Source: Firmicutes bacterium CAG:95 (lineage in GTDB: Bacteria > Bacteroidota > Bacteroidia > Bacteroidales > Paludibacteraceae). Taken from it: 64,000 bases of DNA. The position numbers and the translations under genes are program-made. Shown here in pieces: positions 10,559-57,341 of this stretch. Position 1 is the first letter of the stretch. Each line of letters starts with the position of its first letter. Where the stretch lies: the NCBI GenBank assembly GCA_963615025.1, contig CAVEFV010000002.1:10755-74754 (forward strand). Direction: 5' to 3'. The notes under the pieces were generated by a model. That model did no database searches. It saw only the letters and a list, made by a program, of their open reading frames with translations, and was not told where the DNA came from.

Positions 10559-10703
10559 GGGAACGGTAACATATTGATTTCTCTGCGAAGGAGAGTCGAG
10601 AGCCATAGCACGCTATGGCTCTACAGCGGGCATAAACGATGATACCTTCGACGGGGAAACAGTGATGGTGTGAAGAGAGCCATAGCACGCTATGGCTCTA
10701 CAG
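10559..10703 (-). repeat. REP-like hairpin array, locus 1 (2 units, 77-nt period)
   Basis: Perfect palindromes AGAGCCATAGC-AC-GCTATGGCTCT at 10599-10622 and 10676-10699. Each is preceded on the minus strand by CTGT. The same units occur at 22.6 and 44.3-44.6 kb. Confidence 0.9.
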
Positions 10704-10787
10704 TTATTATCAATTAACAATTAACAATTAATAATTAATAAACCGAGAGGGCTATTTTGTAGGTTGTTGGTAGGTAGTTTGTAAGTT

Positions 10788-10831
10788 CTTCCTATATTCT
10801 TCCTATATTCTTCCTATATTCGTCGTATATA
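10788..10831 (-). repeat. 11-bp tandem array, locus 1 (4 units)
   Basis: CTTCCTATATT x3 then CGTCGTATATA. This is the reverse complement of the A(G/A)GA(C/T)GAATAT units at the other loci. Confidence 0.9.
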
Positions 10832-10840
10832 AAACCTTTG

Positions 10841-11100
10841 TAATATATAGGAATAATGGGGCTTGGCGGGAGGGAAGTTTGAGGGATTGGGAATTTAGGA
10901 GGGAGGAATGAGGATTAAAAGTGGAGAGTTGAAAGTTAATAGAAGTTTGGTATTGAGTGTATCAAGTAGAGGATAGAGGGGTTTACATAGTTGAGTGTTG
11001 AGAGTTGAGGGTTTAGTGCAGTTTAGCGTTGAGTGTTGATGAGTTTAGGGATTGATGAGTTTAGGGGAATTTGAGATTGAGGAAAGGGTGATGGTGTTGT
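10841..11100 (-). repeat. strand-asymmetric tract of the modular element (C-depleted on the + strand)
   Basis: By hand count there are only 6 C in 10861-11100 (240 nt). Internal direct repeat TTGATGAGTTTAGGG at 11036-11050 and 11052-11066. Confidence 0.8.
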
Positions 11101-22578: not shown

Positions 22579-22920
22579 CTGTAGAGCCATAGCGTGCTAT
22601 GGCTCTCTGCGTGGCTTCTTGCGTGGCAATATGTTTGATAATCCTTTGCCCGTCGTCTGTAACTTCGTTTAGGCTAACTGTAGAGCCATAGCGTGCTATG
22701 GCTCTCAACTCCCTTTTGCAGAACAAACAATATGTTCCCCTCCAACCTATGTAAACCCCTCAATAGATCAATATTATTTGGCTATTATTTGATTATTATT
22801 TGTTCCTTGTTTGTCCGTCCCATACCCGTCGTCTGTAACTTCGTTTAGGCTAACTGTAGAGCCATAGCGTGCTATGGCTCTCGACTTCCTTCCGCAGACA
22901 GAACAATGTGTTACCGTTTT
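22579..22920 (+). repeat. REP-like hairpin array, locus 2 (3 units)
   Basis: CTGT + AGAGCCATAGC-GT-GCTATGGCTCT at 22583-22606, 22682-22705 and 22858-22881. An exact 29-nt pre-hairpin repeat CCCGTCGTCTGTAACTTCGTTTAGGCTAA lies at 22649-22677 and 22825-22853. Confidence 0.9.
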
Positions 22921-23049: not shown

Positions 23050-23104
23050 AGGATTGATATAGGACGAATATAAGACGAATATAGGATGAATATAGAACGA
23101 ATAT
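23050..23104 (+). repeat. 11-bp tandem array, locus 2 (5 units)
   Basis: Units in order: AGGATTGATAT, AGGACGAATAT, AAGACGAATAT, AGGATGAATAT, AGAACGAATAT. Confidence 0.9.
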
Positions 23105-23360
23105 AGAAATCACATTCCACAATCACCCCAAAATCATCCAATCAACAATCATAAAATTATTAAAATTTTTAGATTCAATCACTCGTTCAACTATATCCCC
23201 TATATCAACCATAAACGCCATACATCCAGTACACATCTCGCATATCAATTATCAATAAAGTATGGATAGTAGGAACAATAAGGATGTGTCTAAACTCTAC
23301 TGCACACCCCTTTCCATAAAATATCCATATAGGGGTACTAAGTATGATGTTATAAAATAC

Positions 23361-28513: not shown

Positions 28514-28546
28514 AAAAAAGCCTCTCCACTCGGAGGGGCTTTTTTC
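28514..28546. terminator. bidirectional intrinsic terminator (YtxH triad on +, htpG on -)
   Basis: AAAAAA, then the AGCCTCTCC/GGAGGGGCT 9-bp stem with an ACTC loop, then TTTTTT. Confidence 0.85.
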
Positions 28547-35376: not shown

Positions 35377-35420
35377 TTCGTCCTATATTCATCCTATATT
35401 CGTCCTATATTCATCCTTTG
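35377..35420 (-). repeat. 11-bp tandem array, locus 3 (4 units)
   Basis: Units in order: TTCGTCCTATA, TTCATCCTATA, TTCGTCCTATA, TTCATCCTTTG. This is the reverse-complement orientation. Confidence 0.9.
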
Positions 35421-44117: not shown

Positions 44118-44172
44118 AGGTTTAATATAGGATGAATATAGGACGAATATAAGACGAATATAGGATGAATAT
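44118..44172 (+). repeat. 11-bp tandem array, locus 4 (5 units)
   Basis: Units in order: AGGTTTAATAT, AGGATGAATAT, AGGACGAATAT, AAGACGAATAT, AGGATGAATAT. Confidence 0.9.
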
Positions 44173-44271
44173 ATCATGATGTGACGAGGTATATACAAAA
44201 TTGTGACGAAATACGATACCTAATCCATACTTGTCAAATTGTAAATTATCCAATTGTCAATTCCATATACT

Positions 44272-44620
44272 GACTGCAAAACCATACCATGCTATGGCTC
44301 TCTTCACACCATCTCCATTTGCCCATCAAATGGATCATCGTTTATGCTCGCTGTAAAACCATACCATGCTATGGCTCTCTTCACACCATCTCCGTTTGCT
44401 TATCAAATGTAACATCGTTTATGCTCGCTGTAGAGCCATAGCGTGCTATGGCTCTCAACTCTCCTTCGCAGACTAAACAATATGTTACCCTCACACCTCT
44501 ATAATCCCCACCAATGCACAACCATCAACGATGCGACTTTCATATTGGCTGTAAAACCATACCATGCTATGGCTCTCAACTCTCCTTCACAGAACAAACA
44601 ATATGTTCCCGTTAAACCTA
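44272..44620 (+). repeat. REP-like hairpin array, locus 4 (4 head-to-tail units; spacings 79, 77 and 121 nt)
   Basis: Hairpins at 44276-44299, 44355-44378 and 44553-44576 are the degenerate variant AAAACCATACCATGCTATGGCTCT. The hairpin at 44432-44455 is the perfect AGAGCCATAGCGTGCTATGGCTCT form. Confidence 0.9.
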
Positions 44621-44712
44621 ATTAACCCTTTCAACCAATTAAACAACACTACTATAAACCCACAACTTTTCTCAATCTCGCAGAAACATTTGTACAACCA
44701 ACCAAAAATCTG

Positions 44713-44720
44713 TAACTTTG
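44713..44720 (+). promoter_or_regulatory. -7 promoter box TAACTTTG for the FKBP pair
   Basis: Exact TAnnTTTG, 45 nt upstream of the ATG at 44765. Confidence 0.5.
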
Positions 44721-48993: not shown

Positions 48994-49150
48994 TCTTTCA
49001 CCCCACCACCAATTCCCACGAACACCATGCAGGTAAACAGATGCTTGCTGACGGCTGTTTTCCCCCTTTTTTCTCCCTATTTCCTACCTCCTTTGCCAAT
49101 TCATTGTATTAAAGTGGCAAATAATACACGCTACCCCAAAAGCAATAACC

Positions 49151-52150: not shown

Positions 52151-52202
52151 TTTTATATAGGATGAATATAGGATGAATATAAGACGAATATAAGATGAGT
52201 AT
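52148..52202 (+). repeat. 11-bp tandem array, locus 5 (5 units)
   Basis: Units in order: AGGTTTTATAT, AGGATGAATAT, AGGATGAATAT, AAGACGAATAT, AAGATGAGTAT. Confidence 0.9.
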
Positions 52203-52421
52203 AGAAACAACATAGAAAAACCCTCAAAACGCACTACAAAACAGGCAAAACAAAAATACAACAATCATTCGTAACCCAATAGTCATATCTTAATAATTGT
52301 TCCTATAAAAACGACAACAAAATACTTTTTTCCTCTCTCACCCCAATCGGATATATACCTCCTAAACGCTTTTTTCCTACCTTTCCCATTCCGCCATCTT
52401 GTGTAACTTAATTAAATGTCG

Positions 52422-56591: not shown

Positions 56592-57305
56592 ATGGGTATT
56601 CTCAATATACTAAGAGGCGGATGGACAAGTCTTCTTGACTTATTCTATCCGCCTCTCTGTATGCAATGCCAATCACTGCTCAATAATAACGAACACTTCC
56701 TTTGTGCCGACTGTCTTCAAAACCTGCCTCGGACAGAAATGGCACAACATCGTGGCAACCGTGTCGAACAACTATTCTGGGATATATCCAAACTGCAAAA
56801 AGGAGCGGCATTCTGCTTTTACAGGCACGATGAACCCTACAGGAAACTAATACACAGAATTAAGTATAACAACAAGCCTCTTCTTGGGGAATATTTAGGC
56901 GAGGTAATGGCACGAGAATTCCTAAAACAACACTTCTTCGATACAATAGACTTCGTTGTACCTGTCCCGCTGCATCCAAAACGCCAACGCAAACGCGGCT
57001 ACAACCAAGCCGAATATATTGCAAAAGGAATAAGCAACATCACAGCCATTCCACTCGATACAACCCATCTGCAACGAGTCGTCAACAACCCTACTCAAAC
57101 AAAGAAATCATCTGCCGAACGAGTAAGAAACACACAAGGGGTATTTAGCGTGAAAATGCCTGCGAACTGGCGGGGAAAACACATCCTTTTAGTTGACGAC
57201 ATCATTACAACTGGCGCAACACTTCGTGCCTGTATGCAAGTCATTACGCCCATTCATGGTACTACCATCAGTGTCATCGCCTTAGGAATAGCCGACAGCC
57301 TCTAA
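56592..57305 (+). CDS. comF: ComF family protein (phosphoribosyltransferase fold)
   Basis: 237 aa. N-terminal Cys pairs (CMQC...CADC) and PRTase motif ILLVDDIITTGATL. Confidence 0.88.
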   Translation: MGILNILRGGWTSLLDLFYPPLCMQCQSLLNNNEHFLCADCLQNLPRTEMAQHRGNRVEQLFWDISKLQKGAAFCFYRHDEPYRKLIHRIKYNNKPLLGEYLGEVMAREFLKQHFFDTIDFVVPVPLHPKRQRKRGYNQAEYIAKGISNITAIPLDTTHLQRVVNNPTQTKKSSAERVRNTQGVFSVKMPANWRGKHILLVDDIITTGATLRACMQVITPIHGTTISVIALGIADSL

Positions 57306-57341
57306 TCCTCCTCTAATCCTCACCAAACAACTGTCGAACCG

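Follow-up and report, generated by a model that had tools for sequence, protein, structure and literature searches.

A dispersed non-coding repeat mosaic with palindromic units and a common 11-bp register in a gut Prevotella clade

The DNA analyzed here was a 64,000-bp stretch (the window) of contig CAVEFV010000002.1 (positions 10,755 to 74,754, forward strand; assembly GCA_963615025.1, deposited as Firmicutes bacterium CAG:95), and the elements in question were 24-nt palindromes (P units), of which the window contained exactly nine, at three intergenic loci and head-to-tail throughout. The P units were one module of a larger mosaic, which also comprised arrays of the 11-mer ATATAGGAYGA, blocks of 7-mers, a T-module, and further pieces; this mosaic was dispersed, vertically persistent, rapidly restructured, and non-coding, and it changed its length in 11-bp units. 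Eleven base pairs make about one turn of the DNA helix, and nearly all building blocks and length changes of the mosaic were multiples of 11. This register of the whole mosaic was its most unusual property, and it had been overlooked in the original prediction, which was made from the letters of the window alone and took the palindromes for relatives of the repetitive extragenic palindromes (REPs). Our preferred reading, held tentatively and on sequence grounds, is that a small gut Prevotella clade has its own lineage-specific mosaic, dispersed and non-coding, of which the P units are the best-conserved module and which is similar to the bacterial interspersed mosaic elements (BIMEs), is amplified locally in 11-bp steps, and may be read as DNA by putative phased binding proteins. 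As part of this reading, and with the same reserve, the mosaic may be the Bacteroidota counterpart of the enterobacterial REP/BIME mosaics.

An 11-bp register across a dispersed mosaic

The loci used for comparison (related loci) were SPAdes contigs of metagenome-assembled genomes (MAGs), picked for a near-perfect palindrome. A scan of a species collection (one genome per species) with the pattern GTARARCCATASCRTGCTATGGCTCT gave at least 73 stretches; among the stretches listed, 60 came from Prevotella sp. P5-108 (CAVHKB01), 11 came from CAVEIE01 (a 'Bacteroidaceae bacterium' MAG) and were all singletons, and one each came from a Muribaculaceae-binned and a Leptospiraceae-binned contig. The sampled P copy numbers in three related genomes were at least 116 (P5-108; 67 arrays of one to five units in 372 kb sampled), at least 11 (CAVEIE01), and nine (window); a restriction of the copies to a handful of loci, named at the outset as a finding that would speak against a REP-like identity, was not seen.

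Between successive co-oriented palindromes, 53 of 54 spacings were multiples of 11 and took 16 different values between 66 and 396 (including 66, 110, 121, 165, 176, and 242; commonest period, 77), and the sole exception (208) involved a unit with a 34-nt deletion. Within the window, locus 1 had a spacing of 77, locus 2 had spacings of 99 and 176, and locus 3 had spacings of 77, 77, and 121, exact values that replaced the period of '~77-79' nt proposed earlier. The register was likewise found in the rest of the mosaic: (i) in 90% of their distinct distances to P, recurrent 12-mers had one constant residue modulo 11, compared to 24-52% for other moduli; (ii) across 86 mosaics, 53% of the offsets between colinear ungapped matches were multiples of 11, compared to 6-11% for moduli 7, 9, 10, 12, and 13, and the commonest diagonal shift between mosaics was 55; (iii) 11-mer arrays within 700 nt of a palindrome, located before or after P, were co-oriented and exactly in phase with it in all 33 pairs; (iv) the cores (array start to first P) had lengths congruent modulo 11 in 19 of 19 cases, from 124 to 256 nt and at 25% mean pairwise divergence; (v) ten CAVEIE01 composites displayed indels of 11, 22, 33, and 110 nt; and (vi) the in-register 11-mers of all modules had a phase-specific composition (1.12 bits, compared to 0.09-0.26 at periods 9, 10, 12, and 13), with G nearly missing at phases 5, 8, and 9 and A/T reaching 82% at phase 8. 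Since nearly every module and length difference was a multiple of 11, palindromes and 11-mer arrays held one common 11-bp register, which was tested up to 700 bp.

The window by itself obeyed the same rule: matches between its five mosaics shared one diagonal residue, as did all 17 that linked loci 2 and 3 and all 11 that linked loci 1 and 3, and only a single weak match between loci 1 and 2 deviated. Period 11 was found in 18 of the 45 rows that Tandem Repeats Finder (TRF) gave for the window, and its intergenic autocorrelation peaked at lags 11, 22, and 33. No description of an 11-bp register across a whole multi-module mosaic was found for any bacterial repeat family in the literature searched. 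Looping studies in Escherichia coli place the in vivo helical repeat near 11 bp. The genomic dinucleotide period of E. coli is 11.07 bp (PMC7537859). That all 19 cores kept the register at 25% divergence argued that other indels were removed by purifying selection, that the value was exactly 11 argued that the indel supply itself was biased by 11-bp-periodic homology, and both were probably at work.

The window was syntenic with CAVEIE01 (L053) at 92% identity and with P5-108 (L042, L044, and L047) at 87-88%, and it therefore came from a third species within this Prevotella clade. P5-108 had elements at all three window loci, and CAVEIE01 had one at locus 1, with differing module content; P5-108 had an extra array after sprA, where the window had none. 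The occupation of orthologous sites with different module content indicated that the elements were old at their sites and underwent quick structural turnover. Only one of 86 arrays lay inside a called open reading frame (ORF).

The P 24-mer was perfect in 130 of 138 copies at the related loci (136 of 147 with the window included) and identical across three species whose coding DNA was 8-13% different, while the modules flanking P were only 75-90% identical and neighboring units differed by 10-20%. P variants were few, one-sided, and uncompensated. The pattern suggests that the constraint on P acts at the level of the sequence, not at that of the structure. The variant found at locus 3 was private to its array, which points to local amplification or gene conversion.

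Functionless satellite-like DNA might account for this picture: the mosaic would have arisen from a diverged 11-bp tandem repeat, in the manner of eukaryotic higher-order satellites, by in-register crossover or slippage, and the register would be a historical by-product. Such an origin would fit with steps that were exactly 11 and never 10 or 21, with the cryptic 11-bp compositional periodicity of all modules, with the explicit 11- and 22-bp tandem arrays inside the mosaics, with the fast turnover of module content between species, and with the lack of a consistent relation to gene orientation. It is nevertheless judged unlikely: neutrality does not predict a palindrome that stays identical across species next to modules differing by 10-25%, small indels would be expected in place of the strict congruence of the cores, and the wide scatter over intergenic sites (67 arrays in the P5-108 DNA sampled) is left unexplained. 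If the register is only mutational, the mosaic would be a clean bacterial case of satellite-style higher-order repeat evolution.

An assembly artefact also had to be considered, because the de Bruijn k values 33, 55, 77, and 99 are all multiples of 11, the related loci were SPAdes MAG contigs, and the commonest period (77) and the commonest diagonal shift (55) were both k values. This explanation is hardly credible: most spacings (66, 110, 121, 165, 176, 242, and up to 396) were not k values, neighboring units were not exact copies of each other (10-20% different), graph traversal cannot make explicit 11-bp tandem repeats or a phase-specific composition, a false join at a shared k-mer preserves a real register and creates none, and the window conformed by itself.

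REP-like features of the palindromes and candidate RNA-level roles

All nine units of the original prediction were located at their coordinates, six being perfect and three degenerate. The 26-mer GTAGAGCCATAGCGTGCTATGGCTCT had six exact copies in the window (expected, 0; 100 shuffles), at 10599-10624 and 10676-10701 on the minus strand and starting at 22581, 22680, 22856, and 44430 on the plus strand, while the remaining three units, all at locus 3, shared one single variant, AAAACCATACCATGCTATGGCTCT; a search of the window with an nhmmer profile of 112 related units found the same nine units and zero degenerate extras. Each P (consensus CTGTAGAGCCATAGCGTGCTATGGCTCTC) had 11-nt arms on both sides of a central GT. 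The perfect unit folded as RNA into a 10-bp stem with a 4-nt loop (about -15 kcal/mol), and the variant retained 5 pairs in a weakened stem. GTAG at the 5' foot, the prefix under which the palindromes were first described, held for six of the nine and was replaced by GTAA in two and by GCAA in the first unit of locus 3 (at 44274); the AG of GTAG belonged to the palindrome and could pair with its 3' CT. A second small hairpin (CCATTTG/CAAATGG, 44314-44334) did fold in unit 1 of locus 3, as had been proposed, and more weakly in unit 2.

Under the formal rule for GTAG-REPs, GT[AG]G lies at the 5' foot of a fully paired stem of 7-20 nt with a loop of 2-5 nt (PMC6006769; families described in PMC3733652). 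A classical explanation as REPs or REPINs (REP doublets forming hairpins) would have P form a hairpin in single-stranded DNA, its 5' GTAG guiding a single-copy REP-associated tyrosine transposase (RAYT; an IS200/IS605-like Y1 enzyme of the HUH type), encoded elsewhere, that cleaves a nearby CT and copies the units. Much in the sequences agreed with it: the stem was fully paired within the 6-20 bp range, with a loop within 2-5 nt; GT[AG]G stood 0-2 nt 5' of the stem in the six window units; CTGTAG or CCGTAG preceded 132 of 140 copies; and CT, the dinucleotide at which E. coli TnpA-REP cleaves (PMC3479197), stood immediately 5' of GTAG in 104 of 140 copies and recurred at the 3' end of the stem. 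Moreover, a single master sequence dominated the abundance profile, the P copy number differed more than 10-fold between related species, copies persisted at orthologous sites across species as reported for REPINs, and RAYT subclasses 2.4 and 2.6 occur in Bacteroidetes (PMC6006769).

The enzyme itself was not encountered. No Y1 homolog was found in 526 kb around 138 copies (window plus 73 loci): an HUH...Y motif scan (regular expressions built from the subclass signatures of PMC6006769) and phmmer with E. coli RayT, applied to 4,547 six-frame segments of the window and of ~460 kb flanking the copies, gave spurious matches only (best E = 1.7), in line with the original statement that the window holds no RAYT. 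When 91 ORFs located no more than 1.2 kb from arrays were scanned with Pfam, no family recurred and the families listed included no transposase, and Prevotella was not listed in the supplement of PMC6006769. As to arrangement, 54 adjacent pairs in the window and the related loci were co-oriented and only two genuine pairs within 1 kb were opposed, which bore out the common orientation within arrays noted at the outset and left neither REPIN-like inverted pairs nor the alternating orientation of BIMEs; known GTAG families seldom contain head-to-tail dimers (PMC3733652). The stem of P was perfect, while E. coli TnpA-REP, for which alone such a demand is documented, needs a stem mismatch (PMC3479197). 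GTAG families have been reported in Proteobacteria, Cyanobacteria, Chloroflexi, and the PVC group and not in Bacteroidetes (PMC3733652), and RAYT subclass 2.6, which is specific to Bacteroidetes, shows no conservation of the GTAG-recognition region (PMC6006769). Neither the 11-bp register nor the co-phased 11-mer arrays would be explained by RAYT copying. The REP-like identity accordingly stood as far as the formal GTAG pattern, the high copy number, and the extragenic position were concerned, and failed for the inverted pairs and the stem mismatch, and the 526 kb searched yielded no Y1 gene; the full RAYT-driven explanation is considered rather unlikely.

A role at the RNA level was weighed as well, in which the P hairpin would stabilize or terminate transcripts and its C-rich, G-poor flanks would serve as Rho-loading (rut-like) sites, the mosaics being Rho-dependent terminator or insulator regions. 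The stable RNA hairpin, the strand composition of the unit (C 29%, G 14%), the orientation of the upstream gene (co-oriented with the array in 33 cases and opposed in 17; downstream gene, 26 and 23), and the frequent start of mosaics right behind a stop codon are in its favor. Against these stand the T-tract missing from every P unit in genomes that have canonical hairpin-plus-T terminators, the one third of arrays that were antisense to the upstream gene, the divergent setting of locus 1 with no gene reading into it, the conservation of every P base with no compensatory change, and a register of 11 nt with no obvious meaning in RNA, and such a role seems improbable. An identity as plain intrinsic terminators was not supported: there was no T-run after any P unit and a terminator scan called none; CAVEIE01 singletons with complete flanks occupied tandem, convergent, divergent, and fully antisense contexts; and canonical terminators existed elsewhere, L029 and L045 having one directly upstream of the element. 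Between convergent genes at 28514-28545 of the window lay a bidirectional intrinsic terminator of textbook form, AAAAAAGCCTCTCC-ACTC-GGAGGGGCTTTTTT, which showed that this genome does use hairpin-plus-T terminators.

Further identities were rejected. A regulon was discounted since the neighboring genes were unrelated housekeeping genes. CRISPR arrays were discounted since the 'spacers' were repeated modules common to loci, many short arrays were present per genome, and no cas domains were found among the neighbors. Reading GAACAATATGTTC as a Cheo-box or LexA-like site failed on its N5 spacing (not N4) and on a left arm that was not conserved. Rfam 15 matched nothing on the mosaics (window at the gathering threshold; eight array-rich loci at E <= 0.1). 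The unit tail TCTGTAACTTCG (e.g., 22830-22841), located 18 nt ahead of CTGTAG in 37 copies, was nearly identical to the likely promoter box of the FKBP gene (TCTGTAACTTTG, 44709-44720). Promoter activity as the main function was set aside, because most of the 37 tails had TTCG and not TTTG, which breaks the Bacteroidetes -7 consensus TAnnTTTG; the enrichment of TAnnTTTG in mosaics was mild and symmetrical.

Possible function as DNA and relation to known repeat systems

REP/BIME-type repeats have been known for forty years, mainly from Proteobacteria, and their functions and spread are still debated. Under the preferred reading, unequal recombination or replication slippage among units in register would lengthen and shorten the arrays of the Prevotella mosaic in place, which would account for their head-to-tail order, for the variant private to locus 3, and for length steps of exactly 11; the 22-bp leader minisatellite of one CAVEIE01 locus (L033) lends further support to growth in place. 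The element would act as double-stranded DNA, P being read by a sequence-specific and probably dimeric protein and the 11-mers by a protein that would bind once per helical turn, because every base was near-invariant, covariation was not seen, and the arrangement was independent of the direction of transcription. A register close to the in vivo helical repeat would keep all sites on one helix face and would yield a phased nucleoprotein scaffold, to which BIMEs bound by IHF and gyrase, or the 11-bp iterons of R1 parC bound by ParR, offer a parallel. For the spread to new intergenic sites, a RAYT-type enzyme is a possible candidate.

Several points weigh against this reading. The DNA-level function is deduced only from conservation and phasing. 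The quantum was exactly 11 and never 10 or 21, as expected of homology-driven slippage, so the register may be partly or wholly a mutational by-product, and selection on helical phase alone would tolerate a 1-bp deviation. Copies were related by descent, and the counts were therefore not independent events; the related loci were SPAdes MAGs; and the conservation figure for P was inflated by the choice of these loci through a near-exact pattern, although additional P copies in the same arrays, not selected by the pattern, were also perfect. The excess of C over G on the unit strand (29% and 14%), like the 2:1 bias of arrays toward the orientation of the upstream gene, might indicate a role at the RNA level.

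A bolder interpretation, regarded as doubtful, takes the mosaics for a novel class of bacterial chromosome-architecture sequence: dispersed intergenic DNA 'lattices' that would be read in strict 11-bp steps by a putative cooperative protein assembly, either a filament or a phased array, with the ATATAGGAYGA iterons as its nucleation sites and the 24-bp palindromes as its anchors. Such strict reading would lead selection to remove all indels other than whole helical turns, and, if true, this would be the first helical-turn quantization written into a genome-wide repeat family. A register that is selected would directly reflect the in vivo helical repeat and imply a phased nucleoprotein complex at many intergenic sites of an abundant gut genus.

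Arrays of 11-bp direct repeats bound by proteins are known from single-copy sites. In parC of plasmid R1, ParR binds 11-bp direct iterons that form two sets of five, and in Pho boxes PhoB binds 11-bp direct repeats; in both, four to five direct repeats take up one protein unit apiece, one per helical turn, which gives rise to a phased nucleoprotein structure. The 11-mer arrays of the mosaic, with four to five direct 11-bp repeats, resembled them by functional analogy only: parC and Pho boxes are regulatory or segregation sites with known proteins, while the arrays here were dispersed and phase-coupled to palindromes.

The P mosaics shared with enterobacterial REPs and BIMEs (as in E. coli) the short, high-copy extragenic palindromes, the GTAG at the 5' foot, and the combination with other conserved short motifs (here the T-module, leader, 11-mer array, 7-mer blocks, and others). 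BIMEs are DNA-level binding platforms for IHF, gyrase, and Pol I (PMC2817692 and PMC3479197). They differ in that BIME REPs alternate, that E. coli REP stems are imperfect, and that no RAYT was found here in the sampled 526 kb. We know of no 11-bp length quantization or co-phased direct-repeat arrays described for BIMEs. Similarity to the REPIN-RAYT systems of Pseudomonas and others, and to the GTAG families of Di Nocera et al. (2013), lay in the GTAG, the stem of 6-13 bp, the loop of 2-3 nt, one dominant master sequence, vertical inheritance, persistence at orthologous sites, and a copy number varying between relatives; REPINs, unlike P units, are inverted pairs, and their cognate transposase was absent from everything sampled here. 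BOX of Streptococcus pneumoniae has distinct modules, one of them tandemly reiterated, in variable copy number, and to our knowledge it has no central perfect palindrome, helical-turn quantum, or accompanying direct-repeat array. It was comparable to the P mosaics as a modular dispersed intergenic repeat (PMC3049150), with unrelated module sequences. The GTAG families of Thauera, P. syringae, and X. campestris are largely clustered or tandem (PMC3733652). BrickBuilt, a MITE (miniature inverted-repeat transposable element) from Porphyromonas gingivalis, was similar in its Bacteroidales host, strictly intergenic location, tandem minisatellite core, 'leader' and 'tail' subunits, and limited host range, and it differed in its 23-nt repeat unit, small inverted-repeat ends, 19 copies per genome, and promoter activity; no 24-nt palindrome or module-spanning register has been described for it (PMC4596501).

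A literature search found neither the P sequences nor a description of REP, RAYT, 11-bp, or intergenic repeats in Prevotella/Bacteroidetes. Exact-pattern scans of viral contigs and of Joint Genome Institute (JGI) metagenome contigs gave no matches, a metagenome scan with the 11-mer array pattern gave only five unrelated AGGAGGA-type low-GC sequences, and blastn against plasmid and phage collections gave no match. The P family is apparently a family of undescribed non-coding repeats of a few gut Prevotella species, and it extends GTAG-tagged extragenic palindromes to Bacteroidota, in a head-to-tail form and with no RAYT visible in the sampled DNA. REP-like function is directly testable here, because the P and 11-mer baits are sharply defined and a carrier species has a cultured namesake strain.

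The repeats also break short-read assemblies of these Prevotella genomes: many P5-108 arrays were located at contig ends, with which the repeats coincided, and both MAG and Logan contigs broke at them. Two Logan contigs with the FKBP gene (L075 and L076), which are independent short-read assemblies, stopped at the repeat array, 150 nt short of the gene on its upstream side, which is indicative of such breakage. The Leptospiraceae-binned contig (L056; CAZCVM010000376.1) carried the 24-mer inside a perfect 28-bp palindrome, CGTAGAGCCATAGCGTGCTATGGCTCTACG, at a junction between AT-rich and very GC-rich DNA and together with none of the other modules; this copy could represent mis-binning, a chimera, or an independent context.

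Modules and loci of the mosaic

When the inter-palindrome intervals were sliced into 11-nt pieces, a small module vocabulary was found to recur in varying combinations between palindromes. In one orientation, the full element displayed the order 11-mer array (four to five direct ATATAGGAYGA)-spacer 'bricks'-33-bp 7-mer block-leader-P units (one to five or more) with alternative fillers-T-module. The P module with its leader read GYTTATGCnnn CTGTAGAGCCA TAGCGTGCTAT GGCTCTC, and the T-module read AACTCCCCTTCGCAG AACAAACAATA TGTTCCCCTC; further modules were TTTGnnTATTA 11-mers, the 33-bp TTAATTG 7-mer block, a CCCCAGAAATC CAGAATCCCCA GACCCTCCAGC block, and a ~200-bp hairpin-rich element. The two unit types first proposed thus gave way to many module types, and the supposedly terminal module CAACTCCCCTTCGCAGAACAAACAATATGTTCC was found to open longer inter-palindrome intervals as well, in window locus 2 and in related genomes. 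Direct 11-mer arrays (GAATATAGGAY, four to five copies; repeat unit GAATATAGGAC) were present in five of the six window intergenic regions of at least 400 bp, five arrays of this family being found in the 64-kb window and 20 more in the sampled loci.

The window was Bacteroidota DNA and carried genes for SprA, GH43, RuvA, and FKBP, with TAnnTTTG promoter boxes ahead of the tRNA-Gln and FKBP genes. Locus 3, in the intergenic region from the GH43 gene to the FKBP gene, was in plus orientation and composed of an ATATAGGAYGA array (x ~4.5, 44124-44173) that was oriented as the palindromes and started 143 nt (13 x 11) ahead of P unit 1, a 7-bp repeat block (TTGTCAA x 4.3, 44231-44262) between this array and the palindromes, and four P units: (i) unit 1 (44274-44301; CTGCAAAACCATACCATGCTATGGCTCT), the locus-specific variant with weakened stem; (ii) unit 2 (44351-44378; CTGTAAAACCATACCATGCTATGGCTCT), also variant and 77 nt past unit 1; (iii) unit 3 (44428-44455; CTGTAGAGCCATAGCGTGCTATGGCTCT), perfect, with the 10-bp stem of -15 kcal/mol, 77 nt past unit 2 and followed by a T-module (44456-44492; CAACTCTCCTTCGCAGACTAAACAATATGTTACCCTC); and (iv) unit 4 (44549-44576), variant, 121 nt (11 x 11) past unit 3 and followed by a second T-module (44577-44611).

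Locus 2, likewise in plus orientation, began with perfect P unit 1 (22579-22606), the start of which lay 43 nt past the stop codon of a DUF4294 gene. Perfect unit 2 (22678-22705) followed at a distance of 99 nt, with a T-module behind it (22706-22742) that was array-internal and not terminal, and perfect unit 3 (22854-22881) at a further 176 nt, with another T-module (22882-22916). The 176-nt interval contained TATTATTTGnn 11-mer repeats (x 2.8, 22772-22802) in register with the palindromes, and an ATATAGGAYGA array (x 4.5, 23057-23106) was placed in register 209 nt (19 x 11) past unit 3.

Locus 1, in minus orientation, was located in the divergent intergenic region between a nucleotidyl-transferase gene and ruvA. 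It contained a GAATATAGGAA 11-mer array (x 4.1, 10786-10830) in register 121 nt (11 x 11) upstream of P unit 1, a 7-bp repeat block of TTAATTG type (10706-10738; 33 nt, 3 x 11), perfect P unit 1 (10676-10703), perfect P unit 2 (10599-10626) 77 nt past unit 1, and a T-module (10564-10598) after unit 2. Two palindrome-free mosaics had 11-mer arrays of the same family with a conserved left flank, at 35377-35417 (minus strand) and 52155-52204 (plus strand).

The CAVEIE01 element was a regular composite of ~330 nt (11-mer array, spacer bricks, 7-mer block, leader, single P, and CTAGAT-rich tail). When ten such single-P composites were aligned, the border was well defined on the left (CCCTCCGCCAAGCCC) and blurred on the right, and neither terminal inverted repeats nor a target-site duplication could be seen by eye in this alignment, no dedicated search having been run. 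Half-units kept the right arm of the palindrome and had lost exactly 11 nt, giving a CTG directly joined to CGTGCTATGGCTCTC.

Several additional structures were associated with the mosaics. The ~200-bp hairpin-rich element (ACTTTCGGCTTTGGGTCGGTGCGTCAAAAATCGAGCGAGTAATGCGAAAAGCGG followed farther on by GCAAAAGAAATGAAGAAC) was located within the mosaics of L001, L007, and L030 (P5-108) and of L002 and L048 (CAVEIE01) and was absent from the window; it had a constant 11-bp phase to the palindrome in both species and no Rfam match, and it may be a second, MITE-like passenger. Immediately 3' of the palindrome, L040, L053, and L065 (CAVEIE01) harbored a 110-nt insertion that comprised a GC-rich hairpin and ended in the same GCAAAAGAAATGAAGAAC tail as the 200-bp element, with a duplicate of the palindrome's right half (GTSCTATGSCTCTC) behind it; the arrangement looks like either an insertion into or beside P or a second P with its left arm replaced. 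The minisatellite of L033, located ~150 nt upstream of the palindrome and in register with P, consisted of ~7 copies of a 22-bp leader-derived unit, TTTGTTGCTTC GTTTATAACAG. Other intergenic 11-bp tandem repeats of the window, at 1987-2055, 49058-49082, and 57299-57321, were AATTAGCCACT (x2), ATCCATACCAC (x4), TTTTCCCCCTA (x2.3), and CCTCTAATCCT (x2.1). In the minus-strand mosaic of locus 1, upstream of its 11-mer array, nested 16-, 31-, and 38-bp tandem repeats (GTTGAGTGTTGATGAGTTGAGGGATTAATGAGTTTAGC) were found at 10989-11066; these periods are not multiples of 11, and the repeats lay outside the phase-locked part.

Apart from the mosaics, the window contained two SAM-I/IV riboswitch aptamers (RF01725; 50.5 and 60.2 bits) on the minus strand, at 207-308 and 1463-1564, each within a copy of a duplicated upstream segment of ~300 nt (8-304 and 1265-1560; copies 71-87% identical), and they appear to precede two successive minus-strand genes.

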